Positions 28,006 to 50,719 of a stretch of DNA of 64,000 bases are shown here, piece by piece. How positions within the stretch are numbered: the stretch's first letter is position 1; each line of letters opens with the position of its first letter. Source of the DNA: an uncultured Solirubrobacteraceae bacterium (GTDB lineage: Bacteria; Actinomycetota; Thermoleophilia; Solirubrobacterales; Solirubrobacteraceae); NCBI GenBank assembly GCA_963735615.1, contig CAVTLO010000003.1, positions 132,079 through 196,078 of the forward strand, written 5' to 3'. The notes under the pieces are model-generated. The model saw only the letters and a list, made by a program, of their open reading frames with translations, made no database searches and was not told where the DNA came from. A program made the translations under genes and the position numbers.

Positions 28006-28047
28006 CTGTCCGCCGATCGTTTGCGTTCTAATCTTGCGGGCGTGGCT

Positions 28048-28359: not shown

Positions 28360-28384
28360 AACGCTACGAGGCGAGCACATCGAG

Positions 28385-33682: not shown

Positions 33683-33962
33683 CCGTCGGCCGACGAGCCA
33701 CTCTCTCAACCCAGCGGCGCGGAACGTCGTCACGTGCGTACGACGGCGGGGTAGCCGTCGCCCGGGTCACCGGCGGCTCAGAGGAAGCAGCGCGATCCGC
33801 GGCGAATTGAGCCAGGCGTCCGATGCGAGACGGGAACGAAATCACCGCGATGCAGTGGTGATGGCCGGACCCCGATTTGCTAAATGTTGGTCTGGTAATT
33901 CGACTCAAAGAACAGTGGCCCAGGCTGACCAGCTGGGCGAATGCCCAACCCAGAGGTGGTAT

Positions 33963-34637: not shown

Positions 34638-34951
34638 GCGCGATTTCGGCGAGCTGCCGGGGGTCTGGCCCGGACCCGATGGGAAGCATACGGGCCGGGT
34701 CCCAGCCCAAAACGGGGTGGTCGGGAAAGTTCTCGAAATCTCCGTGGCCGCTGATCCGGCAGCTCCATCAGGATCGGTTTGGCCCGAAGTCCGGCGACGG
34801 CCAGCCGCGTACGGCGGCTCACAGGGCTCATGGCCGTACCACAGTCCGCCGTGATCGAGCGTCGTATCCAACTCTCTGACGGGCGCCAGGGGCATCGCGC
34901 TGTGGGAACATGCGTTCGCACGCTGTCCGGTGATGCGGGTAGTGTGCGGCC

Positions 34952-35524: not shown

Positions 35525-35901
35525 AGACCGCCCGATGAGGGCGCGGCGGGGACTCCCACCTGGCCTGGCGCGGAGAAGCCTCTTGACTAGCTGGTGGTGA
35601 CTGAAAGAGACGATCATGTCGCACAAGCGGCAATCTACGACAGGACTACACGCCGCAGATCGATATGTATCAGCAGTCGATGAACTGCGCTGTCGCAAGC
35701 CGGCACTCGGTCCCAGCTGGGAGCCTCACGGAGGTAGACGTGGTGGCTGCCATCCCGTCAGATTCCCTCCTTTGTTTCTTTATCCGGATTAGTCTCGCTC
35801 TTTGCGGGAAATCCGTGTGTTTCAAGACCCACGCTCCAGGTGCGCACCGTAGTCTCGAACCCTAGAATCCGTCCAACATTTGCCTACCAAAGGAGCTGGC
35901 G

Positions 35902-36672
35902 GTGTCTGTAGATATCATTGCAAGCGTAATCGGCGCCGATAAGGCCAAGCGATGTTCAAGCGAGCAGCTTGATGTGCTAACGGAGGCACTTATCCGGGCT
36001 ATAGATGAGCATCCGCCGACACGGGTGCGACTCGAAGGGGTACTGGCAAAAATCCTGCTGGGCTTCTCCGTTTCGACCCATGCACCAGACGCAGTCAAAC
36101 TGCTCGATGCCAAAAGCAGCGTGATTTTGACTGTGACGCACTCTGAAAAGCCCTCCATGAATGGCAAAGGAAGCGAGAGCACGCGCTCTGTTCTCATTGA
36201 GGGCCCTATCGGTTCTGTCGTTACGTGCTATGACGATCAGCTTTTCCGCGTTGATGAGAACTCTGTCGTTCTCGTCAAGACTACCTCTAACGATATAGAG
36301 GTTCCCATTGCGACCGACTTCGTGTCTGGTGATCTGCCGGAAGGGATCTATCGCGGCAACGCGGACGGGTATATCTGGCAGCTGAATAAGGTCGTTGAGG
36401 TCGTTGGGCAAAGCTTCTGGGAAGAGGTCGAGGGTGCTACAAAGTGGGTCATCGAATGGGTCATAGAACACTGGGGCGGCCAGGATCCCGACCCCGATTC
36501 CGAAGAATTTCTAGAACTGTCAACAGACTTGGCGGAAAGCCCGACGATGCATCCGGTGCCGGACCTCCCACCCGGTGTCGTTGGCTACGCTCTCGATGGA
36601 AGCGGTAGCCACTCCACCAATAATCATGTAGACAACCTGTCCAGTATCAAGCTCGGCAACGCGCCCGAATAA
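35902..36672 (+). CDS. Hypothetical protein in a lower-GC segment
   Basis: SD AAGGAG 7 nt before GTG; 256-aa ORF; followed by a strong hairpin. Confidence 0.6.
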   Translation: MSVDIIASVIGADKAKRCSSEQLDVLTEALIRAIDEHPPTRVRLEGVLAKILLGFSVSTHAPDAVKLLDAKSSVILTVTHSEKPSMNGKGSESTRSVLIEGPIGSVVTCYDDQLFRVDENSVVLVKTTSNDIEVPIATDFVSGDLPEGIYRGNADGYIWQLNKVVEVVGQSFWEEVEGATKWVIEWVIEHWGGQDPDPDSEEFLELSTDLAESPTMHPVPDLPPGVVGYALDGSGSHSTNNHVDNLSSIKLGNAPE

Positions 36673-36683
36673 TTGAAGTCGCT

Positions 36684-36718
36684 CGTAGTGTGCCGGTCAC
36701 CTCAGCCGGCACACTACG
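36684..36718. terminator. 13-bp stem hairpin, probable terminator
   Basis: cgtagtgtgccgg-tcacctcag-ccggcacactacg just after the stop at 36672; no U-tract. Confidence 0.6.
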
Positions 36719-37108
36719 GCCCGGCGTGAGACTCAAAAGCATAAGCCGCCGGGTCGCGTCGCACAATCGGCGTTGGGCGGCCCAGAAGGAGCCGGCCCCT
36801 CCCAAGAGAGAACCGGCTCCAGATGCTACTTGCTTCTAATGAGAACTACGAGAAGAACTAGAAAGATAATTATAAAACTATCGTTCAATGCCTTCCTTTC
36901 AATGGTGCCGAAACAGATTCCTAGATCCTTCTTCGGAATCAGAACCAATGAGTAGGTTTGCGGAGCCTACAGCAACGGGCCACCCCGGCGACAGCTCCAG
37001 AGGTCGGAAGCTTGTGCCTGTCCACGTCGCACAAGTGCCGCTGCGCGACGCCAGGCGTCGTCCGTGGCTATTGGCGGAGCGTCACTCCTGCTCGCTTGCT
37101 GTCTGCCG

Positions 37109-37483
37109 CTAGCGCTCTGTGGCCTTGGCGGCGCCACGTAGCGTGCTGACGCCGAAGTCCTTGTGCAGGATCTGATCGGCGCGTGAGGGGCTGACGCCGT
37201 ACCGGCGTCCTGTCTCGCGCAGCGTGAGGCCCTCGATGAAGCGCAGGCGGAACATCTCAATGCTGCGCTCGTCCGGGAGCCGCACCCAGCCCCATTGGTT
37301 CGGGAGCGCCAGGCCACGCCTGTGCAGTCGCCGGACGATCTCATAGACCTTGGTTGGGCCGATGTCGGGGTGCTGCATCAGCTCGACGTTGGAGTGACTG
37401 GTCAGCTGCGTGACGTTGACGATGCCCGCCGAGTGCAGGCAGGCGAGCGTGGCGGGCCTAAGGCCCAGCTCGCTGACGCGCAT
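37109..37483 (-). CDS. Small protein: RNA polymerase alpha-CTD-like domain fused to a sigma70 region-4-like HTH
   Basis: RVSELGLRPATLACLHSAGIVNVTQL...VELMQHPDIGPTKVYEIVRRLHRRGLAL aligns by eye to alphaCTD; FRLRFIEGLTLRETGRRYGVSPSRADQI resembles sigma region 4. Confidence 0.7.
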   Translation of the reverse strand: MRVSELGLRPATLACLHSAGIVNVTQLTSHSNVELMQHPDIGPTKVYEIVRRLHRRGLALPNQWGWVRLPDERSIEMFRLRFIEGLTLRETGRRYGVSPSRADQILHKDFGVSTLRGAAKATER

Positions 37484-37495
37484 GGCCGTGCCCGC

Positions 37496-37762
37496 TCAGG
37501 CGACGTTGTGTCCGACCATCTGGATGTGGCGTACCGCCGCGCGGCTGGCGAAGACGTGGCCGTCTGAGGTGCGGTGGACGAGCCCGGCCTGTTGCAGCGA
37601 CAGGATGTAGTCGATGACGTCGGGCTTTTCCATCTCGCGCCCCAAGTCCTCGAGCGTCCACAGCGGCTGGTTGTCTTCGGGGTCGGTAAGGACGTAGAGG
37701 ATGTCGCGTTCGGTTTCGCGGGTCTTCCTGAGCGGGTCGTGGATAGGCTGCTGATCGGGCAT
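37496..37762 (-). CDS. Small hypothetical protein, winged-helix-like
   Basis: WTLEDLGREM...LQQAGLVHRTSDGHVFASRAA; AAGGAG upstream; co-oriented with the gene at 37483. Confidence 0.55.
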   Translation of the reverse strand: MPDQQPIHDPLRKTRETERDILYVLTDPEDNQPLWTLEDLGREMEKPDVIDYILSLQQAGLVHRTSDGHVFASRAAVRHIQMVGHNVA

Positions 37763-38051
37763 GGGGAGTTACAGCTCCTTCGTGTCCGGGCCTCGGCGCG
37801 GGAGAAGACGTGCCGAGGCCGCTTTGGCTTACGGAGCCGGCCAGGCTAGGGCTGCGTCGCCTGATGAGTCAAGGTGTGGAGCCGCGCTCTTCATGGGCTT
37901 GGGGCTGGCTTCCGGTAGCAAGCGGGACTTCGTCATGGGCGAGCGCATCGTCGTACGTCCGACCCTTACCGACCAGCCCTGTCTCGATAGAAGCGTATGC
38001 CTCGGTAGGGCGTTATACGATCTAGGATCGACTATGCAGTGATCCCACCCT

Positions 38052-38141
38052 GGAGGGGTGGCAGAGTGGTTGAATGCGGCGCTCTCGAAAAGCGTTGTGC
38101 GTCTGATTGGCGTACCGGGAGTTCGAATCTCCCCCCCTCCG
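38052..38141 (+). tRNA. tRNA-Ser(CGA), intact
   Basis: GGAGGGG/CCCCTCC acceptor stem, anticodon arm GCGCT-CTCGAAA-AGCGT, long variable arm, TTCGAAT T-loop, G73; TAGGAT -10-like box at 38023. Confidence 0.95.
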
Positions 38142-38282
38142 TTTTCGCCGGGTTCGTGACGGTTGTTCGAACCCCGCTCCGACTGAAGGCCGGCCGCGCG
38201 CTCGGTGAGTGAGGCGTAGACCTTGGTCTAGCGGTCCGGTGCTGTCGGTTGTATGTGCCGACGGTTGGACTACGCTAAGCGG

Positions 38283-38963
38283 ATGGCTGCTCGCATCGAA
38301 CAACGCGCACTGACCCCCAGGTACACGATCAGCGAGGCTGCCACGCTCATTGGGCGACGCCCCGAGACGGTCAGTCGGTGGAGCTTCGGCCACGAACGTC
38401 TCTACAAGGGCCAGCCTCGCCGAGATGATCCGCTGATCCCGGCAGACGGAGCCAAGGGCGGGCTCGCGCTGTCCTTCCTCAATCTGCTTGAACTCAAGAC
38501 CCTCTCGATGTACCGGGGCGACGCTGCCCTTCAAGCCATTCGACGCGCCCTTGAGTACGTAGGCAAAGAGCTCGGCGAGCAACGTCCGCTGATGACCAGG
38601 CAGTTCCAGGTATACGGCGGCGATCTGCTCACGAAGTTCATCGAGACCGACGACGGCGCAATGCTCCTCAATGCATCCCGAGGCGGGCAGCTTGCCGCGG
38701 AGAAGCTCGTTGAAGGCACACTCTGGACGCGGGACATCGACTACGACGAGGACGAGCGTGCGCGGCGCTGGTGGTTCAAGACTAGGGCTGTGCCAGTGGT
38801 TGTGGACACACGGGTCGCTGGCGGGCACCCGATTACGGCTGGGACCGGTGTGCGTCTAGACGCGATTGCGACTCGCCATCGCGAGGGCTATTCGAGCGAC
38901 GAAATCGAGCGCGACACTGGCGCCACAGAGGCCGAGGTGGTCGCGGCCATTCTGGCGGCGTGA
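38283..38963 (+). CDS. HTH + DUF433 antitoxin (VapB45-like)
   Basis: N-terminal YTISEAATLIG HTH; C-terminal GGHPITAGTGVRLDAI...GYSSDEI...EVVAAI (DUF433). Confidence 0.8.
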   Translation: MAARIEQRALTPRYTISEAATLIGRRPETVSRWSFGHERLYKGQPRRDDPLIPADGAKGGLALSFLNLLELKTLSMYRGDAALQAIRRALEYVGKELGEQRPLMTRQFQVYGGDLLTKFIETDDGAMLLNASRGGQLAAEKLVEGTLWTRDIDYDEDERARRWWFKTRAVPVVVDTRVAGGHPITAGTGVRLDAIATRHREGYSSDEIERDTGATEAEVVAAILAA

Positions 38964-39390
38964 TTCGCGACCTCTACGTCGAGAACTCAGTCGGTCGCGC
39001 TCTGACCGACACGATCAATCGCCTCACACGAAACCACGGGGTGACCGCGCACTTTCAGCACGACATCCACCCCGAGATGCAACGTCCCCAGAAAGGCGAC
39101 GAGTGGTGGATCGCAGACATAGCGCTGCGGGGCATGGCGATTCTCACGCAAGACGCCGCGATTCTCGGCATACGCCAGATGGTTCAACAGGGAATTATGA
39201 CCGCCGAGCGACAGGCCGTTGTTGAGAACGCGGCGCATGTCTTCGCGTTCGGCGACGCCAATACAGCCAGTGGCAGAAGCTTCGCTGCTTGCTCGACCAC
39301 TGGGATGCAATCGTGGCTCTGCTCGGTACGCCCGGCCCCCAGGCAGGTGTGCTCCACATCAGCAGCTTTCGCGCCGAGATCTTTCCCTAG
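38960..39390 (+). pseudogene. VapC45-like PIN toxin with a single-base frameshift at ~39260
   Basis: DEWWIADIALRGMAILTQDAAI; continuation YSQWQKLRCLLDHWDAIV...EIFP* in another frame; GTGA overlap with the antitoxin. Confidence 0.65.
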
Positions 39391-39765
39391 CGCCAACGCA
39401 CGGCTACGGAGCGTCGAAGCGCCTAGCGCGCAGCTCGCTAATGCGCTTCCACACAAGGTTCGGGTTCGAGCTTCGTCTCTCGCTCTCCGTATCTACACCG
39501 GCTGCTCGGCACAAGAAGCATGCAGCCGAGCGGCCTGAGCTGGCATCGTGGCTACCTCCAGAGCGCTCGCGGTCGCGGCGCGAAATCCCACGTCGCGGGC
39601 GTCTCGGGCGATGGGCGGTCCACCTGAGTGAGTCGCACAGGCTCGCCGCGCGCGATCCTCGACGCAGACATCGCCTACTCGCGCGCGTCCTGCACGAGCT
39701 GGTGGGGGGCGCGTTGCGGACGACTTGCGCGTGCTGGACCACAGAGCATGGCGCCCTGCGACGCG

Positions 39766-40200
39766 CTAGGAGACGGCGACGAGCTGTAGCTCGGATGCCT
39801 TCTCTGGCTGGTCCTCGAATCCGACGACCAGGTGCGTGCCGAACGCTTCCGCCAGTCTTCGTAGCGTCGTCACGCTCGTGGGGTGCTGGCCGCTCTCGAT
39901 GCGGGAGATCACTGAGTGGCTTGTGCCGACGCGCTCGGCAAGCTCTTGCTGGGTCAGACCGAGCGCCTGGCGACGTGCGATAACGATCCGGGCGATTCCC
40001 TCGTACGGAGCGATCCGTGAGAGCTCCTGCCGGTACACGGCGCTTCGCTGTGCACGGCGCCGGCTCGCGGCCCGATGAGTCGAGCCCACTGGTGAGACGT
40101 TCGCGCTTGCGGTTGCGGTCTTCTCTGGGGTTGACTTGGTTTTCGGCAGGATGTCCTCTCCATCGATAGTTATCGAGCGAGCCACGGATGACCTTAGCAT
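39766..40200 (-). CDS. XRE-family HTH antitoxin (HigA-like)
   Basis: RRQALGLTQQELAERVGTSHSVISRIESGQH; downstream of the RelE-like gene; true start may be ~50 nt downstream. Confidence 0.8.
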   Translation of the reverse strand: MLRSSVARSITIDGEDILPKTKSTPEKTATASANVSPVGSTHRAASRRRAQRSAVYRQELSRIAPYEGIARIVIARRQALGLTQQELAERVGTSHSVISRIESGQHPTSVTTLRRLAEAFGTHLVVGFEDQPEKASELQLVAVS

Positions 40201-40218
40201 TATTGCTAAACGATCTTG

Positions 40219-40621
40219 CTAGGGAGCGTCGTGCCCGGCGGCGCGTGGCGGTCGCCGTCGAGGCGCGTCCATTCTTCGCTTGAAGTCCTCCCAGCGCGCC
40301 TCCGCGATCACGATGTCCGCCTCTGGAATCGCGGCCGTGTCCTTGCGCAGCATGTGAAGCAGGATGATTCAGGTTGCCGGAGCGTCGGTAGAGAACTCGA
40401 TAGAGCTCGGAGCCGTAGTGGCAGCGCAGCTCACGCAACTGGCCGCGCACCTGGCTCGAGTGCGGGAATGGCGGCGGCGGTGCCGTGGTTGGCTGATCGT
40501 TCAGTCGATCGATCTGCAGGTCGATCGTCGGCTGCTTGCGCTCGTTGAGCCCCGCAACGAAATCGTCGACCGGCTCGGACCCATCCGGTGCGCGATAGTA
40601 GACAGCTTGCGTGCGAGGCAC
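40219..40621 (-). pseudogene. RelE/HigB (Gp49-like) toxin with a +1 frameshift at ~40368
   Basis: YYRAPDGSEPVDDFV, GQLRELRCHYGSELYRVLY, then IILLHMLRKDTAAIPEADI in the shifted frame to TAG at 40219. Confidence 0.7.
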
Positions 40622-40650
40622 GCCGCATTTCTACCGATGCGCCCGGTCGG

Positions 40651-40899
40651 GCAAACGCTCAACCAACTTTCCGGTTCTCGCGCCAAACTCGCGCCAGTCC
40701 GGCCGCGGATCGAGCGGTCTCAGGCGGTTAACAGCGGTTTCGCGGCGTCGAGCATCCGCAGCGACCACCCCGCCGAATCCCGCTCAACCATGCGGGAAAC
40801 GGCTCAGGAAAGCCAAGAATCTCGGCGCGGGCAAAAGACACGATTCTTCGGAGCCTGGGATTTCGAGGCTGCCGCATTCAACCGCTCTGCCACCCCTCC
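40651..40899 (-). repeat. 249-bp att-like module, copy A (tRNA 5' half + arm region)
   Basis: Collinear with 49309-49557 at a constant offset of 8658: a 27-bp identical block (40674-40700), a 28/29 block (40778-40806) and the tRNA 5' half. Confidence 0.85.
40861..40899 (-). other. tRNA-Ser(CGA) 5' half A, ending exactly at the anticodon loop
   Basis: GGAGGGGTGGCAGAGCGGTTGAATGCGGCAGCCTCGAAA followed by non-tRNA sequence TCCCAGG; TACATT -10-like box upstream at 40919-40924. Confidence 0.9.
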
Positions 40900-41031
40900 A
40901 TGAAGTGGATGGTAAGGAAATGTATAGCGCGCTGGAAAGATCGAGAGCGCTAGACATTGGTCCAAGGCTCGCGCTGACGGGTAGATTGACCGCTGCGCAG
41001 CACACCGGCGCGTTAATATCACCCTACACGG

Positions 41032-42447
41032 ATGGTTGACACCGGTTTTGCGTCGTCGGCGACGCTGCAGTTCGATGGATCGAGCCCGGCTGTTGCGTTG
41101 TGGCGGCTCGTTGGCGCCCTGACGGCCGAGCAGGCCCAAATCCTTGCGGGTGAGATCGAGTTGCTGACGGGTGCGGCGTGGCCGGAGCAGCTATCCGGCC
41201 CGCCTCGTTCGCGGCTCGCGAAGGGCGTGCGGGAGAGGCACTCCCGATGGTGTCCGAGCCACGACGACGAGGCGTGCGTGTGTTCCCCGCGGTGGGAGGC
41301 ATGGGTGTACTCGCGCAACGACAGGGGCAAGATTCGAAGGACGTTTCCTGAGCGCTGGGAAGCGAAGGCTTGGCGTCACGAGCAGCTCGAGCTGGCGAGC
41401 ATCGATCGGCTGCGAGCCCCGAGCCGTCTCTCGCTTGCTGAGGCCGGCTCGCGGTGGGTCGAGATGGCCCGCGAAGGGCAGATCCGCAATCGCTCTGGGT
41501 GTCGCTATAAGCCGAGCGCGCTACGCACGATCGAGACCGACCTACGGCTGCACCTTGTCCCGAGGATGGGCACGAGGGTCATAGTCGGGGTCAAGCGTTC
41601 GGATCTGCAGCGGCTTGTTGGTGGCTGGCTGGCAGCGGGGATGAGCCCGAGCAAGATCCGGTCGATCATCAACGCCGCACGCGTGCTGTGGCGAGACCTG
41701 GATCTCATCACCGGGCGCGACAATGAGCTGCTTACCGACCCAACCCGTGGTCTACGCCTTCCGGCGAGTACGGGGCGACGCGAACGAATCGCGACCCCCG
41801 ATGAAGCTCGCAGGTTGATCGAGGCGCTACCGGCAGGGGATTGTGCTTTGTGGGCGACCGCGATGTATGCAGGGCTGCGCCACGGCGAGCTGCGCGCCCT
41901 ACAAGTCCGCGATATCGATCTCGAGCGACGCCGGATCAACGTGAAGCGTGGCTGGGATCAATACGAGGGCGAAATCGACCCCAAGAGCGAAAAAGGCACC
42001 CGCTCCACGATCATCACCAAGGCCCTGCTGGACCTTCTTGCATCGCACCTACGAGACACCGGCCGCAAGGACACCGACCTCGTGTTCGGGCGTACGCAGA
42101 CGAAGCCGTTCCAGAGCAACACCGTCAACAAGCGAGCCCGGAGGGCGTGGGTCGCCGCGCGCAAACGAGAAGACCGCCAGAACGCCACACCCACAGCGGA
42201 GAGGGTGAGGCTGATCGGGCTGCAGGAGTGCCGTCACACCGCCGCCTCGCAGATGCTCGACGCCGGGATCGCGATCGACAAAGTCAGCAAGTTCATGGGA
42301 CACGCCTCGATCACCATCACAATCGACCGCTACGGACACCTACTACCCGGAGGCGAAACCGACGCCATCGCACTTCTCGACGCCTACCACCAACACGTGG
42401 AGTTCGGGGAAAATGTCACCGAATGGTTGCGGCAGCCACGCACCTGA
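41032..42447 (+). CDS. Tyrosine recombinase/integrase
   Basis: AGLRHGELRAL (R), PKSEKG (K), LQECRH (HxxR with H>Q), MGHASITITIDRYGHL (H, Y); the real start is probably nearer 41160-41230. Confidence 0.9.
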   Translation: MVDTGFASSATLQFDGSSPAVALWRLVGALTAEQAQILAGEIELLTGAAWPEQLSGPPRSRLAKGVRERHSRWCPSHDDEACVCSPRWEAWVYSRNDRGKIRRTFPERWEAKAWRHEQLELASIDRLRAPSRLSLAEAGSRWVEMAREGQIRNRSGCRYKPSALRTIETDLRLHLVPRMGTRVIVGVKRSDLQRLVGGWLAAGMSPSKIRSIINAARVLWRDLDLITGRDNELLTDPTRGLRLPASTGRRERIATPDEARRLIEALPAGDCALWATAMYAGLRHGELRALQVRDIDLERRRINVKRGWDQYEGEIDPKSEKGTRSTIITKALLDLLASHLRDTGRKDTDLVFGRTQTKPFQSNTVNKRARRAWVAARKREDRQNATPTAERVRLIGLQECRHTAASQMLDAGIAIDKVSKFMGHASITITIDRYGHLLPGGETDAIALLDAYHQHVEFGENVTEWLRQPRT

Positions 42448-42623
42448 TCGTGAGCCTCCGCACCGTCGTCGAGCCAAACACCGAAACGTTGTGCCCATCG
42501 AGTGCCGGGTGGATCTCTCGGACTCGCACGCTCTTGCGTCCCGGATGGCTGCGATACTGACGGGGATGGCTGGCGGCCCGCTACGGTCTCGCCCGGTGGC
42601 AGGCGGATCTCGGAAGGAGGCAG

Positions 42624-43595
42624 GTGATGGCCGGTTCCGGTGATCACATCAAGGCGCTCGTGCGCAGTCACGCATCTGGTGACGACGCGTCGTTCTACGC
42701 CGTCGTCACCCAGATCGCGGCGCAGGCTGCGCGCCGCGGGCACACCCGCCTCGCGAGTGAACTGAAGCAGACGATTGACGCTTCCCGGCGCGAGCCAGTC
42801 ACGCGCAGAGCCACCCCGATCGCGCGCCCCACCGGAGAGCTCGCGGACCTTCTGACCGCCTCATTCCCGGACGTGGGCATCCGCGACCTGATCGGCCCTG
42901 AAGACCTCCTTGATCTCGTCCGCGAGGTCATTGCCGAGCAGCGCCAGCGCAACCTCCTGACACAGAAGGGCTTCGCGCCGATCCACAGGTTGCTGCTGGA
43001 GGGGCCGCCCGGCACCGGAAAGACGCTGACCGCGCAGGTCCTCGCGCACGAGCTCTCGCTGCCGCTGCTTACCGTCCGCCTCGACAGCCTGATGAGCAAG
43101 TTCCTCGGCGAGACCGCATCGAAGCTGCGCCTCCTGTTCGACGCGGCGGCAGAGCAACGCGCCGTCTACCTATTCGACGAGTTCGACGCGCTCGGAGGCG
43201 AACGCACCGGCAACGACGTCGGCGAGGCACGCCGGATCCTCAACTCGTTCCTCGTCTTCCTCGAGCAGGCGAGCCCGCAGAGCATCATCGTCGCCGCCAC
43301 AAACCACCGCACGATTCTCGACCATGCCCTCTTCCGGCGCTTCGACATGGTCATCGCCTACGGGCTACCCGACGAAAAAGCTGCTGCTGCGGTCATGCGC
43401 GCCCGCCTCGGGCCGCTCGGCAAGGGCATCCGCTGGAAGACCGTCACCAAACACGCGGCTGGGCTCAGCCACGCCGACCTCGTCAAAGCTGCGGAGTCCG
43501 CAGCGAAGCAGGCAGTGATGAACCGCGAAACGCTCGTCACGCCAGAGGCGCTGACCGCAGCTCTCGACGCGCGGGTGGCCGCAAGCGTTGGCTGA
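42624..43595 (+). CDS. AAA+ ATPase (IetA-like)
   Basis: Walker A GPPGTGKT, Walker B LFDEFDA, AATNH, LDHALFRRFD; overlaps the S8 gene start. Confidence 0.88.
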   Translation: MMAGSGDHIKALVRSHASGDDASFYAVVTQIAAQAARRGHTRLASELKQTIDASRREPVTRRATPIARPTGELADLLTASFPDVGIRDLIGPEDLLDLVREVIAEQRQRNLLTQKGFAPIHRLLLEGPPGTGKTLTAQVLAHELSLPLLTVRLDSLMSKFLGETASKLRLLFDAAAEQRAVYLFDEFDALGGERTGNDVGEARRILNSFLVFLEQASPQSIIVAATNHRTILDHALFRRFDMVIAYGLPDEKAAAAVMRARLGPLGKGIRWKTVTKHAAGLSHADLVKAAESAAKQAVMNRETLVTPEALTAALDARVAASVG

Positions 43596-46122
43596 CCCAG
43601 CGCCCGGCCCGCTACCGCACCTCTGGGTACGCGGGTACGCCAAAAGCCACCCGTTCACCCGCGTCGGGGGCGGAGGCGATCCGAAGATCCGCGACGTTGA
43701 GCACCGCGCACACGGCCGCGCGCTGCGCCGGGAGCTCGACGCAGCGATCGCCGAGCACGACGCGGAGCCCGCCCAGCCCACGATCACCGACGAGCTGCAC
43801 TCACAGGGCGTCGTTCTCGTCCTCGAGGGCACCGACGCCGGGTTCCCGCTGAAGATAGAGTCGCTCGAAAGCTTCACACGGCACAGCAAGACCCCCAAGT
43901 TGCCGCGGTGGCTCCTGCTCTCGGTCACACCCGCAAAGGACGGTGCGCCCGAGCAGGCGATGGTCTGGGTCAGCGACGACTATCGCGCTCAGTTTCTCAA
44001 ACTCTTCGAGGACTACCTCGGGCGCACCTCCGCGACCGGCCAGCCTTGGAATCGGGAACTGATGGCCAACATCGCCCGGATCCGTCGCGCCGTGCTCCGT
44101 GACCTCTGGCAGTCGCATGGCGACCCGCCGACCGCGGGCAGTCAATGGTGGGAGCTCTGGCTGCACCGGACCCCCGACGGGATCGACCTGCTGCGACGCT
44201 ACGCGGCGACCTCCCGCCTGCATCTCGCCACGCGCACCCTTACGCTCGGCGACCGTGATGTCGGGTGGATCAAGGGAACCTGGCAGCAGCTCGAGAGCCT
44301 GGTGTTCACGGCCGTCCCGCTCTCAGAGATCCGCCGCGCCGAGTTTACCGAGACAACTGAGGAACTCCCGCGCGACGAGCAGGACGAGCTCGCCGAAGAC
44401 CTCGCGCAACGCGTCGCGGGCGCCGACATCTCAGCTCCCGCCGTCTGCCATCTCGATGGCGGCGTCATGCACACGCACAAGCTCCTCACGGCGTCACTAC
44501 ATCCAGACGACACGCACAGCATCGCCGGGCTTCCCATCCTCGGCGCAAAGAACCACGGCACACTGATGGCCGGCCTCGCGCTCTACGGGTCGCTGGAGGA
44601 GCTGCTGCTGACCACCCAGAGTGTCGCGCTCACGCACCGTCTCGAGTCAGTCAACATGCTCCCCGACGCACCCGCCGAAAACGACCCGCTCGCCTACGGG
44701 GTCGTCACGGCCGAGTCCGTCGCGCTCCCGGAGAGCACCGTTGCAGACCGCCGACGGGTGTTCTGCATGCCGATCACCTGCCCACCCGAGAGCCCAGGTG
44801 AGCCGACGCTGTGGTCTGCCGCGGTAGACGCTCTTGCCGTCGGTGTCGACATCGCGAGTTCCGACACGGGCATCGAGGTGCTCGGGGTACCGAGCCCGGA
44901 GCAGGCGAGGCTGTTCGTAATCTCCGCCGGCAACATCGAGACACTCCAGCAGGACTACCGCGCCGCATGTGACACCGAAGCGGTCGAGGACCCGGCTCAG
45001 GCGTGGAACGCGCTGACGGTCGGCGCGTACACTGAGCTCGTCTCCGTGCCGCAGGACCCGACCTTCGACGGCTGGTCGGCGCTGGCGGCCGACGGCGACA
45101 TCTCACCGTTCAGCCGCACTTCGCTGCTGTTCGGCACGAACAAATGGCCGGTCAAGCCAGACATCTGTATGGAGGGCGGCAACGCGCTCACCGACGGCAT
45201 GGATGGCTACGATGACTTCCATCCGTTGCTGTCTCTGCGCAGCACCGACACGCGGAGCGACGTAGCACTCGGATCGATCAACGCGACGAGCGCTGCTACC
45301 GCGCAGGCAGCGAGGCTGGCCGCGCTCGCGATCGCCCGTTATCCGTCCTACTGGCCGGAGACGATCCGGGGGCTGCTCACCCACGCCGCCGAGTGGACGC
45401 CTGCCATGCGATCCGAGGTCGACGGCGCAACAACACGAGCAGACAAGCTCAGAATGCTGCGTCGCTACGGCTGGGGGGTGCCGACGGAGGAGAGCGTGCT
45501 CGCCTCCACATTGAACGCCGTGACGCTGATCACCCAGGACGAGTTCACGCCGTTCGACGGTCCTGAGCATGCCCGTCGGCTCCTGCGTCTGCACCAGCTG
45601 CCGTGGCCAAAGGAGACGCTGCAGGAGCTCGGTGCGGCAAACGTGACGCTCAGGGTGACGCTTTCGTACTTCATCGAGCCGAACGCGTCACGCCGCGGGT
45701 GGCGCCGCCGGTACGTCTATTCATCGCACGGTCTGCGCTTCACTTTGAAAGCGCCGACGGAGACCACAGAGCAGTTCGTAAGCCGCGTCAATTACGAGGC
45801 CCAAAGCGAGGAGGACGGCCAGCAACGGCCTTCGGGTCGCTCCGAGCGTTGGCTGATGGGCGGCGATCAGCAGACCCTGGGCTCGCTACATCAGGACCTA
45901 TGGGAGGGATCCGCTGCTGACCTGGCCTCCAGCGGAGTGCTCGCGGTGCACCCGGTCGGTGGCTGGTGGAAGAACAACAGCCAGCGAAAGGACCGCATCG
46001 GCATGCCCGTTCGCTACGCCCTGATCGTATCTCTCAAGACCGCCGAGCAGGGCGTGGATCTTTACACGCCGGTAGCGGTCGAGATGGCCGTGCCCGTGGA
46101 GACGGCGATCCCGGCAACCTAG
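43588..46122 (+). CDS. Cytoplasmic S8 subtilase (IetS/Y4bN-like)
   Basis: HLDGGV (D), NHGTLMAG (H), ISAGN, KPDICMEGGN, NATSAATA (S), RRYGWG; no signal peptide. Confidence 0.85.
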   Translation: MADPAPGPLPHLWVRGYAKSHPFTRVGGGGDPKIRDVEHRAHGRALRRELDAAIAEHDAEPAQPTITDELHSQGVVLVLEGTDAGFPLKIESLESFTRHSKTPKLPRWLLLSVTPAKDGAPEQAMVWVSDDYRAQFLKLFEDYLGRTSATGQPWNRELMANIARIRRAVLRDLWQSHGDPPTAGSQWWELWLHRTPDGIDLLRRYAATSRLHLATRTLTLGDRDVGWIKGTWQQLESLVFTAVPLSEIRRAEFTETTEELPRDEQDELAEDLAQRVAGADISAPAVCHLDGGVMHTHKLLTASLHPDDTHSIAGLPILGAKNHGTLMAGLALYGSLEELLLTTQSVALTHRLESVNMLPDAPAENDPLAYGVVTAESVALPESTVADRRRVFCMPITCPPESPGEPTLWSAAVDALAVGVDIASSDTGIEVLGVPSPEQARLFVISAGNIETLQQDYRAACDTEAVEDPAQAWNALTVGAYTELVSVPQDPTFDGWSALAADGDISPFSRTSLLFGTNKWPVKPDICMEGGNALTDGMDGYDDFHPLLSLRSTDTRSDVALGSINATSAATAQAARLAALAIARYPSYWPETIRGLLTHAAEWTPAMRSEVDGATTRADKLRMLRRYGWGVPTEESVLASTLNAVTLITQDEFTPFDGPEHARRLLRLHQLPWPKETLQELGAANVTLRVTLSYFIEPNASRRGWRRRYVYSSHGLRFTLKAPTETTEQFVSRVNYEAQSEEDGQQRPSGRSERWLMGGDQQTLGSLHQDLWEGSAADLASSGVLAVHPVGGWWKNNSQRKDRIGMPVRYALIVSLKTAEQGVDLYTPVAVEMAVPVETAIPAT

Positions 46123-46143
46123 CCGGCGCATCGACATCCGGAG

Positions 46144-47061
46144 TCAGCCGCTGGCCGTCGCTGTTTCCGCGAGCACCGCGAAGCCGATGTAGACGTGAGC
46201 GATCGCGACGGCCGCCGCGAGGAACGCGAGCCGCCGATGGCTTGCCGTGTACTCGTCCTGATCCCACGCGTCTAGGACGGAGCGTTTCTCATCCCAGTGG
46301 ATCAGGTCGCCGTACTGGAACGCGCTGAGGAGGAAGCTGGGAGCGTGCTCCTCTTCGTAGTCGAGGACCTCCAAGTGCTCCTCGCGCGCAAGCTTTTCGC
46401 GCACGAGCTGGTTCAGCGAGCGGGCGTGGAGCCGGCCGGAGGCACGTCGCCAGCTGACGATGGTTTGCTTGCGTACGTCGCCGGCGCCGTCCTGTGATTC
46501 CTGATTGGCCTTCCAAAGTATGTCCGCGACCCGCGTAAACGGAGCCTGCTCGCTCTGGCTGTCGCACTGGCGCAGCAGGGTTGAAAAGCCAATCTGACGG
46601 TCTCTTTCGGGGAAGGCCACTGTCAGCTGCTCTGATGCACCGCTGTCGGCGATATCGATGCTCATACCCCCGCCGGCGGCGTTCACGACCGCGCTCGCGG
46701 CGAGATCCCGGGCGCAGTGACCGTAGCGATCGACCACTCGCTGATCCTCGGCCGACAGCGGCGTGCCGAGGCACCCGAATGCCCGTGGGTCTGCGAGCCC
46801 GAAAACATAGTCGAGACTGCGCCAGTTGAACTCGAACGCTTCCGGTCCTCGGGCGCTCGAAGCCATCGGTGCGGGGAACGGCAGTGGACGATCGGCGAGC
46901 AACCCCTCCGGCCCAGACGTGCGAACGCGCAGCTGCCCATGGCCATCGGGTTCACTTCCCGAGATGTACCCGACGTGCGCCACATGCTCGACCCCGTCTG
47001 GAGTCGTCCGCATCGCCTTGACCCAACGGTCCGGACGGGCGATTGGTGCGCTGTCGGCCAT
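46144..47061 (-). CDS. Hypothetical protein
   Basis: 305-aa ORF with globular composition, co-oriented with the upstream TIGR02391-like gene. Confidence 0.6.
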   Translation of the reverse strand: MADSAPIARPDRWVKAMRTTPDGVEHVAHVGYISGSEPDGHGQLRVRTSGPEGLLADRPLPFPAPMASSARGPEAFEFNWRSLDYVFGLADPRAFGCLGTPLSAEDQRVVDRYGHCARDLAASAVVNAAGGGMSIDIADSGASEQLTVAFPERDRQIGFSTLLRQCDSQSEQAPFTRVADILWKANQESQDGAGDVRKQTIVSWRRASGRLHARSLNQLVREKLAREEHLEVLDYEEEHAPSFLLSAFQYGDLIHWDEKRSVLDAWDQDEYTASHRRLAFLAAAVAIAHVYIGFAVLAETATASG

Positions 47062-47095
47062 GCCGTCACGGTAGCCACCGGGGCGCGGTGCGTCC

Positions 47096-47893
47096 CTACC
47101 GAGCGTCGTCGATCCGGCGGTGCAGCATCGACGCGAGCGTTAGCATGTCGAGCGCCTCGCTGCGCTCGACCGCCCACCGGATCTTCGGCGCGTGCGCCGT
47201 CGGATTGCGGAACGTGGAGAACAGGCCCTTGCAGAGCATCGCGAGGCCGATGTGCTCGCTTCGCTCCCAGTCGCTCTGCAGCGTATTGAACGAGAGCATC
47301 GGTGGGCCGTTCGAGAGACCAAAGGCTTGATCGACGATCGCGGCACCATCCCCGCTGAGTCCCGTGCGCACGCGGATCTTCTCCGCGACGCTCTTGGCTG
47401 CCTCAAGTACCGCGTGGAAGTAGTTCTGTTGCACCAGCTCGGCGCGGCAGAACACGAGCACGTCCGGATGCACGTCGCGTCGCGCGAGCTCCGCCTTCAG
47501 CGCGTCTGCCCGCTGCTGTGCCTCCGAGACGGTCCGTGCGGCCGTCGCCTTGGCGACCTGCCCGTCATCGAGCACTTGGTAACCGTAGAGCAGCAGTCGC
47601 GCATTCACGGAGGCACGGTGCGCGTCATGCTCGGCTGGCGAGCCGAACCGGACGGGAGCCATCATCTCGGTCACCAGTCGGATTAGCGGCCGCCCGTCAC
47701 GCTGCTGGTTTTGCTTCTCGGCGACAGCGTTGAACAGCCGCTTCCACTTCGTGCCAGTCTGCGCGGCGGCGTTCTCCCGGACCTTCAACGTTCCGATCAG
47801 GTTCGTGATCTGGGTACCGTTGGCGGTGTCGGCGAGCTCGCGGCAGATCGCCTCGACAGCGGTAGCCGGGAACACTGGTATCTCGCTGGGCAC
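47096..47893 (-). CDS. TIGR02391/Ymh-like protein with a HEPN RxxxxH motif
   Basis: TKWKRLFNA, YFHAVLEAAKSVAEKIR, C-terminal FRNPTAH. Confidence 0.75.
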   Translation of the reverse strand: MPSEIPVFPATAVEAICRELADTANGTQITNLIGTLKVRENAAAQTGTKWKRLFNAVAEKQNQQRDGRPLIRLVTEMMAPVRFGSPAEHDAHRASVNARLLLYGYQVLDDGQVAKATAARTVSEAQQRADALKAELARRDVHPDVLVFCRAELVQQNYFHAVLEAAKSVAEKIRVRTGLSGDGAAIVDQAFGLSNGPPMLSFNTLQSDWERSEHIGLAMLCKGLFSTFRNPTAHAPKIRWAVERSEALDMLTLASMLHRRIDDAR

Positions 47894-48045
47894 GACCGTT
47901 AGGATGCCAGGCGGCTCAGCGGGCTCGGCTGCTGCTTCAGCTCGCCTCGGTAGGAGTCGGCATCTTCTCGAGAATCGGCGGCAATCGCGCTCGCGAAGTA
48001 GCAGACATGGCCCGCGTCTGCCACGACAGGCGTCAGAATCAAGTC

Positions 48046-48933
48046 ATGCCCGGCGACTCCGATCCAGTTCACCTGGAAGCTTCTGAACAAGCAACACCGC
48101 TGCAGCGGCTGGCGGCCGACTTTCAGCAGCGTCTGCTGGCCGTCAGAGCCTGGCTTACCGAGCACGAGCCGCAGATCACCGCTGCGCTCGGTGCGATCGC
48201 GACGTTCGCGCTGATTCAGCCCCAGCTCGAGCGCATGCGCGGCCGCTTCGAGGATACGGAGTGGGAGTATCTGCTCGACCGCGTCGACTTCGCCACTGGC
48301 ATCGGTCTGCTCGTGCTGCTGGATCGCGAGGGAGCGGATGGCGTCGAGCGGGTACTTGAGGCCGCGCTCGGCTGCCCCGAGGCACTGCCGCAGCTGCTCG
48401 GCGCACTCGAATGTCTTGAGATGTCCCCAACGCATCGCCGTCAGCTCACCGCGGGCTTGCGTTGCGTCTCAGCCCGCGACTACGAGGTAGCCGTCCCACT
48501 CCTCATGATCGCCTTCGAGGGTCTCGTGTCGACCCACGCCAGAGACATCGGCCTGATCGAGCCCCACAAAGGCAAGAAGCATCGCTTCACGGAGGCGGCC
48601 GGCCGCACCGGTCCTGTGGGCGGGATCGAGGATCTGCTGATGATTGGACAGCTCGGCTTCGACGACGCCTTCAGCGACTTCCTTCGAATCCACGTCTACG
48701 GCGGCGAGGGAGACGCCTTTCGCCACGGGATCGCGACCGACGGCTTTCGCCATCGGGCCTTGATGGTGACCGTCGCGCTACTCGGGTGGCTGAGCGCGGT
48801 CGCGCCCACTGCCGACCGTCCGCAGCCACTGCGCACGCTGCTGTTCGATGTCGGCGTGGCCGAGTGGGGACGGCTATCGGTCGGGAGGGACCTTGAACGC
48901 AGCTCGCCAAGGGAGCTTGCGTACAGGCCATGA
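48046..48933 (+). CDS. Hypothetical helical protein, possibly a degenerate HEPN
   Basis: AVPLLMIAFEGLV and AFRHGIAT (RxxxxH-like with terminal T); start uncertain (48007 or 48046). Confidence 0.5.
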   Translation: MPGDSDPVHLEASEQATPLQRLAADFQQRLLAVRAWLTEHEPQITAALGAIATFALIQPQLERMRGRFEDTEWEYLLDRVDFATGIGLLVLLDREGADGVERVLEAALGCPEALPQLLGALECLEMSPTHRRQLTAGLRCVSARDYEVAVPLLMIAFEGLVSTHARDIGLIEPHKGKKHRFTEAAGRTGPVGGIEDLLMIGQLGFDDAFSDFLRIHVYGGEGDAFRHGIATDGFRHRALMVTVALLGWLSAVAPTADRPQPLRTLLFDVGVAEWGRLSVGRDLERSSPRELAYRP

Positions 48934-49026
48934 AAGTGGCCGAACTCGGCCCCGTCCAGGGCGAGTTGGGCTCGGAGCCCCGTGATACGTCATCCGCAGC
49001 CCTCGGCGGCGCGTGGCGCGAGGGGG

Positions 49027-49100
49027 TTCAGTTTGGCTCTCCAGAGCCAAACTGAAGCGGTTTCGAAACCGCGCGACGGACTGGCGCGAACACTGGCGCA
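49027..49100. repeat. Two abutting palindromes plus direct ACTGGCGC repeats (arm-type sites) upstream of the 3' tRNA half
   Basis: ttcagtttggctct-cc-agagccaaactgaa 49027-49056; gcggtttc|gaaaccgc 49057-49072; ACTGGCGCG/ACTGGCGCA at 49080 and 49092, sharing 12 bp with the module A/B block in reverse complement. Confidence 0.8.
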
Positions 49101-49154
49101 CGCGAGCGTGTTCTTGGCTCTAGCAAGCCAAAAATGAGGCACCGCGCCAAAGGT

Positions 49155-49211
49155 CTCGAAAGCTGTTGTGCGCCATTCGGTGTACCGAGAGTTCGAATCT
49201 CTCCCCCTCCG
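49155..49211 (+). other. tRNA-Ser(CGA) 3' half starting at the anticodon loop
   Basis: CTCGAAA-GCTGT-TGTGCGCCATTCGGTGTACC-GAGAG-TTCGAAT-CTCTC-CCCCTCC-G; the upstream sequence is not tRNA. Confidence 0.9.
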
Positions 49212-49308
49212 TACTCCAGCTAACGCAATGTTCAAAGCAGCCCCCGAGACAGGGTGAGCGCGCCCATCGGCCTTCAACAGCGGTCGCTGGTGATCGGCGC
49301 GGGACGAA

Positions 49309-49557
49309 GCAAACCCTCAACCAACTACCGAGTTCTCGCGCCAAACTCGCGCCAGTCCAACCGCGGATCGTGCGGTTTCAGGCGGTCTCAGGCGGTAAAC
49401 GGGTCACAGGCACGGCCACCGCGCTCGGCGCCACATCCCGCTCAACCATGCGGAAAACGGCTCAACCAAGCCAAAAATCCGTCGCGAACCAAAGACCCCC
49501 ACAACCTGCGCGCCCGAATTTCGAGACCGCCGCATTCAACCGCTCTGCCACCCCTCC
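49309..49557 (-). repeat. 249-bp att-like module, copy B
   Basis: Collinear with 40651-40899; conserved blocks at 49332-49358 and 49436-49464. Confidence 0.85.
49519..49557 (-). other. tRNA-Ser(CGA) 5' half B
   Basis: GGAGGGGTGGCAGAGCGGTTGAATGCGGCGGTCTCGAAA followed by non-tRNA sequence TTCGGG; TAAGAT -10-like box at 49583-49588. Confidence 0.9.
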
Positions 49558-49604
49558 AGGGCGACGACCGCAAGGCTAGTAGATCTTAGGTCTGTACTCG
49601 CGGC

Positions 49605-50030
49605 TTAGGTCTGCACTCGCGGGTCGTCGTTCGGGTCCAGGTAGTCGAGGCCCAGCGGCCCGATTGCTGTTACCTGGGTGATGTACTCGCCGGATCGTGC
49701 GCAGTGAAAGTGATGCGTGTCGCCGGGTAGAACGATGACGCTGCCGGGCGGATACGCCTCCAGCGCGTCGTCGTCGAACCGATCGCCGATGCCAATGTAG
49801 AAGATTCCTGAGATGACGGTGTAGATCCGATCCTCCGGGTGTTCGTGTGGCATCAGCCGCACGCCGGAGGGCACTTTGACCCTGATCACGTATGGGGCTG
49901 CCTGCTCGGGATCGCCAACGACGACGGCGAGCCGGACGGACGGCGGGAACGCGGGGAACGGCTTCCAATCGATGTCCTCGGGGAGGATCGATCTGAAGAC
50001 GCTCTGGCCCGGCTGATGGGCTCGACTCAT
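49605..50030 (-). CDS. Cupin domain protein (DUF4437-like)
   Basis: LMPHEHPEDRIYTVISG and LPGDTHHF cupin motifs. Confidence 0.8.
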   Translation of the reverse strand: MSRAHQPGQSVFRSILPEDIDWKPFPAFPPSVRLAVVVGDPEQAAPYVIRVKVPSGVRLMPHEHPEDRIYTVISGIFYIGIGDRFDDDALEAYPPGSVIVLPGDTHHFHCARSGEYITQVTAIGPLGLDYLDPNDDPRVQT

Positions 50031-50109
50031 AGGTCGCGAACCGTAATGCCGTCGTCTTGGATCACGACCATGCTGTCACCCACCTAGCGTAGCCCTCTGC
50101 GACCGAACC

Positions 50110-50706
50110 TCATGCGCCGATCGGCACGTGCCCCGGCTGCGCGGCGACCCGCTCGAGCCAGGAGCCGATCGCGGGATAGCGCTCGGGCGCAAAGCCGCCC
50201 TCGTGCGCGACGTGCGTGTACGCGTACAGCGCGATGTCGGCGATTGTGTAGCGCTCGGCGACGAGGAACGGGCTCGCGCGGAGATGGCGCTCGATTGCGT
50301 CCAACGCCGCGTAGCCGCCCTTCATCTTCTCCTCCAGGACCGCCTGCGTCGGCGGTGCCTTGGCGATGGCCATCCAGAACCGCACGACGGCGATGTATGG
50401 CTCGTGGCTGTACTGCTCGAAGAACATCCACTGCAGCACGCTGGCGCGCTCGAAGGCATCCTCGGGGAGATACGCGGTGCCGTCGGCGAGGTACCAGAGG
50501 ATCGCGTCGGACTCGCCGAGCGCACGGCCGTCGTCGAGCACGAGCGTGGGCACGCGCAGCGCGGGGTTGAGCTCGCCGAGCAGCTCCGCTCGACCCGAGC
50601 GGTCGATGACGTCGACCTCGCGTCGCTGGTAGTCGAGGCCGAGGTGCGCGAGCAGCAGCCGCACCTTGTAGCAATTGCCGGAGACCTGGGAGTTGTAGAG
50701 CAGCAC
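50110..50706 (-). CDS. Glutathione S-transferase family protein
   Basis: SGNCYKVRLLL, NPALRVPTL, LGESDAILWYLA, YTIADIALYAYTH. Confidence 0.9.
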   Translation of the reverse strand: MLLYNSQVSGNCYKVRLLLAHLGLDYQRREVDVIDRSGRAELLGELNPALRVPTLVLDDGRALGESDAILWYLADGTAYLPEDAFERASVLQWMFFEQYSHEPYIAVVRFWMAIAKAPPTQAVLEEKMKGGYAALDAIERHLRASPFLVAERYTIADIALYAYTHVAHEGGFAPERYPAIGSWLERVAAQPGHVPIGA

Positions 50707-50719
50707 TATTGTGCTCGCC

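Follow-up and report, generated by a model that had tools for sequence, protein, structure and literature searches.

A spare tRNA-Ser(CGA) gene of an integrative element from a Solirubrobacteraceae bacterium, probably split by an inversion in cis

Introduction

Among tyrosine integrases that target tRNA genes, the classification credited to Williams (2002) reportedly distinguishes enzymes whose crossover lies in the anticodon loop. In the classical arrangement attP supplies the 3' part of the tRNA gene, so that integration rebuilds the gene and leaves direct repeats. The locus described here lies in a stretch of 64,000 nucleotides (the window) on contig CAVTLO010000003.1 of an uncultured Solirubrobacteraceae bacterium (GCA_963735615.1, a metagenome assembly of 3.73 Mb in three contigs); it contains an integrative element, E1, made up of a tyrosine integrase gene (int), defence genes and a replacement tRNA-Ser(CGA) gene, tRNA_A, whose two halves now stand in opposite orientations at the ends of an 8.3-kb segment that has probably been inverted. 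As with the classical integrases, the crossover falls in a symmetric anticodon stem-loop and int lies beside an att site; unlike there, the arms of the att sites are unrelated to the tRNA and both junctions carry dead halves.

Among the closest described systems is tRNA-dependent lysogeny, reported for the actinobacteriophages Fionnbharth/K4 and cluster L (Guerrero-Bustamante & Hatfull 2024, PMC10865867), in which a host tRNA gene is split and a replacement is carried by the incoming element; a sequence-only reading of the window had regarded the system as undescribed, which does not hold for this underlying kind. Shared features are a tyrosine integrase with arm-type sites, an attB in a host tRNA gene, a host belonging to the Actinomycetota, and a common core too short for a tRNA to be restored at either attL or attR. 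In contrast to those phages, E1 is an 8.7-kb non-phage island with defence cargo, its core is exactly the 7-nt anticodon loop, and its replacement tRNA gene lies divergently beside int. PMC10865867 is silent on an attP that recombines with the tRNA of its own element (its text has 0 occurrences of the words "inversion" and "intramolecular").

Inversions that an integrase brings about between att sites or tRNA genes are known from the pTN3 integrase of Thermococcus (PMC5495485), and chromosomal inversions have been proposed in the origin of the tripartite integrative and conjugative elements of Mesorhizobium (PMC5882170). In these cases, as here, the tyrosine integrase of a mobile element would invert DNA between opposed att sites in tRNA genes; there, however, large pieces of chromosome are involved, bounded by two host tRNA genes or by elements separate from each other, whereas in the present case the element's own replacement tRNA serves as the partner, and it is the body of the element that is flipped. 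What is new is this flip in cis through the element's own replacement tRNA, tRNA-dependent integration and integrase-mediated inversion being each already known. The Hin/Gin, FimB/E and Rci invertases and shufflons act on equivalent sites and flip DNA readily in both directions, thereby changing expression. The locus resembles them in having DNA between inverted short cores with a recombinase encoded nearby; it differs in that its sites are of attL/attR type with unlike arms, that no expression unit is rearranged and that relatives are not polymorphic.

A tRNA gene split at its anticodon loop

The two halves of tRNA_A each include a copy of the core, CTCGAAA, which is the whole anticodon loop and contains the crossover point:

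40861..40867, minus strand: core copy CTCGAAA of site 2, crossover point
40868..40899, minus strand: a_A, the 5' half of tRNA_A, with stem strand GCAGC
49155..49161, plus strand: core copy CTCGAAA of site 3, crossover point
49162..49211, plus strand: b, the 3' half of tRNA_A, with stem strand GCTGT

With the core, the 5' half (40899-40861, minus) reads GGAGGGGTGGCAGAGCGGTTGAATGCGGCAGC followed by CTCGAAA, and the 3' half (49155-49211, plus) reads CTCGAAA followed by GCTGT...CCCCTCCG, exactly at the positions and on the strands that the sequence-only reading had given for two tRNA-Ser halves. That the halves join into a tRNA of 89 nt, as it had also claimed, is borne out by inverting 40868-49154 in silico, which creates a second tRNA-Ser(CGA) for ARAGORN, a full cloverleaf with the anticodon stem GCAGC/GCTGT. 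The strands of a_A and b thus pair with each other; the canonical stem is GCGGT/ACCGT, and the stem of the one intact copy (tRNA_1, below) is GCGCT/AGCGT. As the window stands, ARAGORN calls no tRNA at 40861-40899, at 49155-49211 or at 49519-49557, where a further 5' half is found. Since no more than the 7 nt of CTCGAAA are shared, neither junction rebuilds a tRNA.

In all, four sites with this core are present in the window:

Site 1, plus strand: intact gene a1-b1 (tRNA_1)
Site 2, 40651-40899, minus strand: a_A-core-P'_A, attL-like
Site 3, 48935-49211, plus strand: P-core-b, attR-like
Site 4, minus strand: a_B-core-P'_B, the attL of E1

The un-flipped state in a relative and in metagenomes

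The same tRNA is intact in a related locus, L065, where the 5' half and loop match the window at 40/40 positions and the loop and 3' half at 56/57, and again in a unitig of metagenome run X1; a_A and b were once one gene, as had been proposed, and matches of this length speak against a chance origin firmly enough to exclude it. In L065 the order is intact tRNA_A, int, and 2.2 kb that are 99.4% identical to 46938-49161 and end in P-CTCGAAA-P'; its int is truncated by a deletion equivalent to 41808-46937. This layout is, to judge by its order and junctions, the one predicted for the un-flipped state. The L065 junctions read ..GCGGCAGC|CTCGAAA|GCTGTTG.. and ..CAAAGGT|CTCGAAA|ACCAGCC.., those of the window ..GCGGCAGC|CTCGAAA|TCCCAGG.. 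and ..CAAAGGT|CTCGAAA|GCTGTTG..; junctions and parental sites differ exactly at the core, which places the crossover inside the 7-nt anticodon loop. Outside these 7 nt the exchanged partners have no homology, which marks the exchange as site-specific and not homologous recombination. With its intact tRNA and attP, L065 also upholds the earlier view that the layout of the window is formally that of attP x attB recombination between inverted sites on one molecule.

Read evidence takes the form of assembled contigs from shallow soil metagenomes, at a coverage of 2-3x at which minor orientations are not countable. The strain of the window is present in run X39, where eight contigs match E1 and a neighbouring element, E2, exactly; one of them, of 151 nt (40732-40882), spans the split junction at 40861. 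Run X1 holds an E1 about 99.7% identical, with an exact 87-nt unitig that reads a_A-core-b, that is, an intact tRNA_A, and with nothing of segment X, which lies beside E1 in the window. Split (X39) and intact (X1) states are thus seen in near-identical copies of E1, in different samples and strain backgrounds. The pairing of site 3 with site 4 in silico would invert 357 bp and produce a hybrid gene that passes ARAGORN as a tRNA; no supporting read for that product occurs in the metagenome runs. A metagenome-wide scan for the end of the P arm, the core and an element-type 3' half (AAGGTCTYGAAAGCYGTT) returned 80 loci, nearly all of them chance matches; one (L136) is possibly related, and none is informative.

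The arms of the att sites

The arms that flank the cores are those of an attP and bear no resemblance to a tRNA:

40651..40860, minus strand: arm P'_A, the P' arm of E2, with a GGCT-N6-AGCC palindrome; direct repeat with 49309-49518
40677-40701, plus strand: arm-type repeat GGACTGGCGCGAGTTTGGCGCGAGA in P'_A
48935..49154, plus strand: arm P of E1, sharing 99% identity with its L065 counterpart
49029-49054 and 49114-49131: palindromes in the P arm
49078-49106: arm-type repeat GGACTGGCGCGAACACTGGCGCACGCGAG in P
49212..49308: 97-nt spacer from the replacement tRNA to P'_B, the native spacing of the family (about 98 nt in L053, about 95 nt in L065)
49309..49518, minus strand: arm P'_B, the P' arm of E1 itself; direct repeat of 40651-40860
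49519..49525, minus strand: core copy of site 4

The 5' half and arm of about 210 nt at site 4 repeat the module 40651-40899 at 76-88% identity, exactly 8658 bp away. P and both P' arms contain a common paired repeat, GGACTGGCGCGA-N4-5-TGGCGC, together with GGCT-N-AGCC palindromes, and genome-wide the extended arm repeat is confined to P, P'_A and P'_B. Homologous P' arms lie 3' of the core in L035, L037, L053 and L065. In L065 the P arm is joined to a P' arm, which makes an intact attP (P-core-P', core CTCGAAA); a further example, with core CTTGAAA, is L037, on contig 18 of genome G020. The idea that these elements carry only a 5' half in attP was tried and rejected, the sequences having complete attP sites as well as complete element tRNAs.

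P arms end in GGT at the core, and displaced host 3' halves usually start with ACC (L053-L065, L035, L037, L038 and the window); GGT/ACC mimics the canonical anticodon stem, and none of the replacement tRNAs at these loci has it; they show GGC/GCC, AGC/GCT, GCT/AGC or GCC/GGC instead. Such altered loop-proximal stems may shield replacement tRNAs from the integrase, yet genes of the a1 and tRNA_A types have nevertheless served as targets, and for that reason no claim of shielding by stem change is made here, clear as the pattern is. Separately, about 95 nt upstream of the real core the P arm has a second core-like palindrome that resembles the canonical anticodon stem-loop, both in the window, where it is degenerate (GCGGT-TTCGAAA-CCGC, about 49057-49072), and in L065 (GCGGT-CTCGAAA-CCGC, about 13776-13800); it may serve as an accessory site or be what is left of an earlier junction.

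The host-type gene, the replacement tRNA and the integrase family

Because L065 has a_A and b as one gene beside the 5' part of int, the broken gene is to be read as the replacement tRNA of E1, separate from the host-type gene. The sequence-only reading had made an intact tRNA (attB) the broken partner; the split halves belong instead to the element's spare, and the host-type gene is a third copy, split separately, whose 5' half it had overlooked:

49526..49585, minus strand: a_B (49557-49526), the chromosomal-type 5' half with stem GCGGT, and its flank TAGCCT-N13-CCCT (49558-49585)

The 36 nt at 49526-49561, which comprise a_B and four bases of its flank, recur unchanged at the intact tRNA-Ser(CGA) of four related genomes (G001, G010, G015, G019), and the longer upstream flank, with a -10-like TAGCCT, is conserved in six (G001, G007, G011, G015, G019, G022). 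Directly upstream of this flank (about 49590-49630) lie two tandem units of about 19 nt (GCGAGTRCAGACCTAAG, minus strand). Together with P'_B, a_B forms the real attL of E1, left where a host-type gene was split by integration, and this assignment explains the 8658-bp spacing of the repeats.

A scan of relatives, with one genome per species, gave 13 loci with integrases 64-90% identical, all from Solirubrobacterales or related metagenome-assembled genomes. In every one (13/13) an intact, divergent tRNA-Ser (CGA or UGA) lies about 150-240 nt upstream of int, the core being CTCGAAA for the CGA and CTTGAAA for the UGA tRNA. The locus with the closest integrase, L053 (90%), reads flank gene, chromosomal-type 5' half-core-P', about 98 nt, inverted intact tRNA, int; L055 and L064, in direct orientation, read host 5' half-core-P', cargo, inverted intact tRNA, int, P-core-host 3' half. 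An element-borne integrase, an attB in a host tRNA gene, a core too short to rebuild the tRNA and a replacement tRNA are thus found together, as in tRNA-dependent integration, and the family can be described, from these comparisons, as elements that split their target tRNA-Ser and bring a complete substitute, divergent upstream of int and inverted relative to attP.

Complete P-core-P' junctions occur inside large chromosomal contigs at six loci (L037, L054, L056, L057, L058 and L065), usually adjoining an integrase and an intact inverted replacement tRNA, which indicates that tandem or decayed arrays are common in this integrase family. Pile-ups of this sort are frequent, probably because the GGT at the end of the P arm and the ACC at the start of the displaced host 3' half would leave an attR with an attB-like core region. 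At six loci, five of them with a full-length integrase, an intact attP-type junction and an intact replacement tRNA persist in cis, and the flipped layout is present at none of the 13 loci. In L065 (10009-10500) an a1-type 5' half follows a C-terminal integrase fragment and is joined to a P' arm, after which comes tRNA_A; this arrangement reads as a nested integration of one element inside another's replacement tRNA.

Element E2 and the intact tRNA

To the left of E1 in the window stands the neighbouring element:

38051..38142, plus strand: tRNA_1, tRNA-Ser(CGA), stem GCGCT/AGCGT (ARAGORN)
38143..40650: segment X, between tRNA_1 and P'_A
38253-38963, plus strand: DUF433/HTH_66 protein in X (Pfam, PHROGs)
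39766-40200, minus strand: helix-turn-helix regulator in X (Pfam, PHROGs)

According to ARAGORN, tRNA_1 is the sole intact tRNA of the window and the sole intact tRNA-Ser(CGA) of the genome, in which UCG is the most used serine codon (37% of serine codons). It is 100% identical to the integrase-adjacent tRNA of L053, and the sequence upstream of it is similar to that which separates tRNA and int in L065. A search to its left found no integrase remnant. On these resemblances tRNA_1 is identified as the replacement tRNA of E2, a decayed, integrase-less element remnant consisting of P'_A, X and tRNA_1. Segment X was probably inserted secondarily, since E1, L053 and L065 have only about 95-98 nt at the equivalent position.

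A classical island, with tRNA_1 as attL, the 3' half as attR and direct repeats at its ends, was considered and rejected: the stems do not pair (against the displaced 3' half, the 5' half of tRNA_1 forms three G.U pairs and a C-C mismatch), and L053 has a native element tRNA 100% identical to tRNA_1. Nor, the P' arms not being tRNA-like, is there an attP that supplies the 3' part of a tRNA as in a classical restoring island.

On the downstream side of tRNA_1, 1.37 kb (38121-39490, including the DUF433/HTH gene) are 88.6% identical to DNA downstream of a tRNA-Ser(GCU) of another species, in L044 (genome G023, 8248-9619); the match begins within the last 22 nt of tRNA_1, and this position suggests a second kind of element, one targeting the 3' end of tRNA-Ser genes.

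Proposed mechanism

We favour, with a probability of roughly two in three (0.68), a model in which an attP-type site formed by E1 and E2 in tandem recombined with tRNA_A in cis and inverted 8287 bp. E1 would first have integrated into a chromosomal-type tRNA-Ser(CGA), leaving the 5' half of that gene at 49557-49526. Its far end would have abutted the decayed E2, thereby forming a complete attP-type junction, P-core-P'_A, which the integrase would then have recombined with the core of E1's own tRNA_A, an integration in cis. Because these cores lie in opposite orientations, recombination would turn round the intervening 8287 bp and convert tRNA_A and attP into the attL-like a_A-core-P'_A (40651-40899) and the attR-like P-core-b (48935-49211). 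Read from site 4, the window has a_B-core-P'_B, 97 nt, the flipped block of tRNA_A, int, IetAS, PD-Lambda-3 and P, then P'_A, X and an inverted tRNA_1. The flip would have been carried out by the E1 integrase in this order of events, and it looks like a rare off-target accident in a known kind of tRNA-splitting element. Loss of tRNA_A would have been tolerated because tRNA_1 of E2 still supplies tRNA-Ser(CGA), so that the cell presumably now depends on this gene. E1 should no longer be able to excise as a unit, since its attL (site 4) is without an attR-type partner on the same strand.

Several observations weigh against this model. With a loop-proximal stem AGC/GCT, as opposed to the GGT/ACC of the usual target, tRNA_A should be a poor substrate for the integrase. 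No contig of any run covers 49120-49180, around the junction at 49155, and the pre-inversion state of the window strain is not seen among the metagenome contigs. No chromosomal 3' half was found, and a second P arm, that of E2, is also missing from the genome. The whole array, moreover, is inverted relative to the flank gene at 26403-26867 and has the host-type 5' half on the thiolase side. Lastly, a contig of run X11 (peat) reads X-P'_A-core-a_A at 97% identity and lacks the P arm and cargo of E1; a_A-core-P'_A can thus also result when an E2-like element integrates in the ordinary way into a gene of the tRNA_A type, which leaves the order of events ambiguous.

Alternative explanations

The X11 contig also fits a different path to the identical final map (so the geometry of the sites implies), in which an E2-like element would first have entered tRNA_A, giving a_A-core-P'_A and P2-core-b, and an attR x attR inversion or other rearrangements would have followed. 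Nested integration into replacement tRNAs does occur, as the a1-type half-core-P' beside tRNA_A in L065 attests, and X11 has a_A-core-P'_A independently of E1's P arm and cargo. We consider this path unlikely, as it requires attR x attR recombination and a second P arm that the genome does not contain. To our knowledge, integrases of the lambda type normally do not recombine attR with attR.

The sequence-only reading had proposed an invertible cassette that serves as a tRNA switch, that is, a programmed and reversible system in which the integrase toggles the 8.3-kb body, leaving the tRNA whole or broken and the element excisable or locked. Both orientations are found among near-identical copies (split in X39, intact in X1), both halves and the integrase are undecayed, and site 3 can geometrically pair with site 2, which would restore tRNA_A, or with site 4. 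The two states, however, are documented from different samples and strain backgrounds, not from one population; the un-flipped layout prevails throughout the family (0/13 loci flipped), even at the six loci where attP and tRNA remain un-recombined in cis, five of them with full-length integrase. Reversal should moreover need an excision (directionality) factor, because the present sites are of attL/attR type with unlike arms, and no such excisionase was recognised among the cassette ORFs (open reading frames) tested against Pfam and PHROGs. Finally, tRNA_1 masks any tRNA phenotype, and orientation leaves all promoters and coding sequences unchanged except for the tRNA itself, with a_A staying beside int and P beside its neighbouring gene, so that no promoter moves relative to a gene. 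A tRNA switch is therefore not upheld, and a reversible in vivo flip acting as an anchoring switch, with one orientation excisable along with its own tRNA and the other locked, is likewise unlikely. Were it true, the cell would rely on the tRNA of the neighbouring element whenever E1 is locked, the two elements would be mutually addicted, and replacement tRNAs in islands of this kind generally would be placed in inverted orientation so as to make self-recombination a harmless flip and not a deletion.

A contig that merges reads of two orientations or strains could mimic the inversion, and the setting is one in which such errors arise: a metagenome assembly in three contigs, co-occurrence in the same survey of related strains with the other orientation, and a junction at 49155 devoid of read support. 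An assembly artefact is nonetheless very improbable, given the independent short-read contig that matches 40732-40882 over 151 nt, the seven further exact contigs from the same run on both sides, and the fact that a mis-join would not put both breakpoints precisely in the 7-bp core. RNA-level joining of the halves of a naturally split tRNA gene, known from Nanoarchaeum, would likewise go with a break at the anticodon loop, but can be excluded for practical purposes because the full 7-nt loop is present in both halves as a recombination duplicate and the sequence that follows the 5' half (TCCCAGGCTCC) is not complementary, as leader and trailer would be, to the one that precedes the 3' half (..GCGCCAAAGGT), the arms being moreover those of an integrase attP and the same gene being intact in L065.

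Significance

Elements that split a tRNA gene and supply a substitute themselves inherently carry a second target for their own integrase; under the favoured model of inversion in cis, the window is a natural case in which this liability was realised. The flip would have destroyed the spare tRNA, locked an island with IetAS and PD-Lambda-3 genes, and left a single, borrowed tRNA-Ser(CGA) for the commonest serine codon. The attP and tRNA_A, whose un-flipped state is kept in a relative, form a concrete pair of substrates for studying how replacement tRNAs are shielded, the candidate shields being the altered loop-proximal stem pairs and the inverted orientation. With this locus, tRNA-dependent integration is seen beyond mycobacteriophages as well, on non-phage islands of Thermoleophilia.

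Integrase and cargo of E1

E1 spans 8658 bp and consists, in order, of P'_B, 97 nt, tRNA_A, int, IetAS, PD-Lambda-3 and P. Between a_A and the P arm lie:

40900..41031: divergent tRNA-int intergenic region, attached to a_A and int in either orientation
41032..42447, plus strand: intact tyrosine integrase of 471 aa (PF00589, 5e-19; phrog_1)
42624..43595, plus strand: IetA-like AAA+ ATPase, defence cargo (PADLOC IetA, 3.7e-67; PF00004)
43588..46122, plus strand: IetS-like S8 subtilase, defence cargo (PADLOC IetS, 4.6e-25; PF00082)
46144..47061, minus strand: ORF of 305 aa with no Pfam, PADLOC or PHROG match
47096..47893, minus strand: PD-Lambda-3_B/Hypoth_Ymh (HEPN-like) protein (PADLOC, 3.3e-72; PF09509)
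47899..48933: overlapping ORFs 47899-48435 (minus) and 48007-48933 (plus), each with a GC content at third codon positions of 0.78 and no family match (Pfam, PADLOC, PHROG)

The tyrosine integrase that had been noticed inside the cassette is confirmed by PF00589 and phrog_1 and has all catalytic motifs (R, K, HxxR, H, Y); an alignment with 11 homologues shows conservation of LRHGE, PKSEKGTR, RHTA, GHAS and DRYGH. The genome has no second integrase of this family, and 40861-42392 aligns contiguously with L053 at 88.5%. By the PADLOC models of the anti-phage systems IetAS and PD-Lambda-3, the cargo matches IetA, IetS and PD-Lambda-3_B; the genes for IetA and IetS are adjacent with an 8-nt overlap and qualify as an IetAS system, and no PD-Lambda-3_A partner is recognised among the neighbouring ORFs. 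Two or three ORFs without an assigned function complete the cargo. The carrier is not a temperate phage: it has no structural, lysis or replication genes, and its PHROGs matches are limited to the integrase and regulators. In runs X2, X3 and X5, related soil strains have int-IetA-IetS at about 97% identity (window 41021-46988), with a different sequence upstream of 41021 and a deletion of about 680-700 bp at 46225-46925; the int-IetA-IetS module evidently travels in other contexts too.

The surrounding DNA

In most relatives with an orthologue of the flank gene at 26403-26867 (G001, G008, G010, G015, G019, and also L053), the tRNA follows it on the same strand. Relatives show no synteny of the cupin gene (49605-50030) or the MpaB gene (26839-27939) with the tRNA locus. 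They likewise lack synteny with 26868-38050 and 49586-50710, two stretches of accessory DNA low in GC (guanine plus cytosine). Inverted repeats, sought at 26868 and 49586 as an explanation for the orientation of the array, were not found. In L046 (genome G022, contig C2, 5876-10060) an intact tRNA-Ser(CGA), preceded by its usual flank, is on the strand opposite to the flank gene and 3.6 kb away from it, with no att arms nearby, so that the tRNA locus seems to be rearranged by other means too.

Just left of tRNA_1, 37109-37483 (minus) encodes a protein of 124 aa that matches both the C-terminal domain of the RNA polymerase alpha subunit and sigma-70 region 4 (Pfam), near which, at 35000-37000, GC falls to 55-60%. 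Further left, among MpaB oxygenase, hydrolase, MFS and SDR genes of the accessory DNA, an AAA_16 ATPase ORF and an ORF with a C-terminal GerE/LuxR helix-turn-helix are adjacent (28226-31252) and may be parts of a single large regulator of the LuxR type, interrupted by a change of frame.

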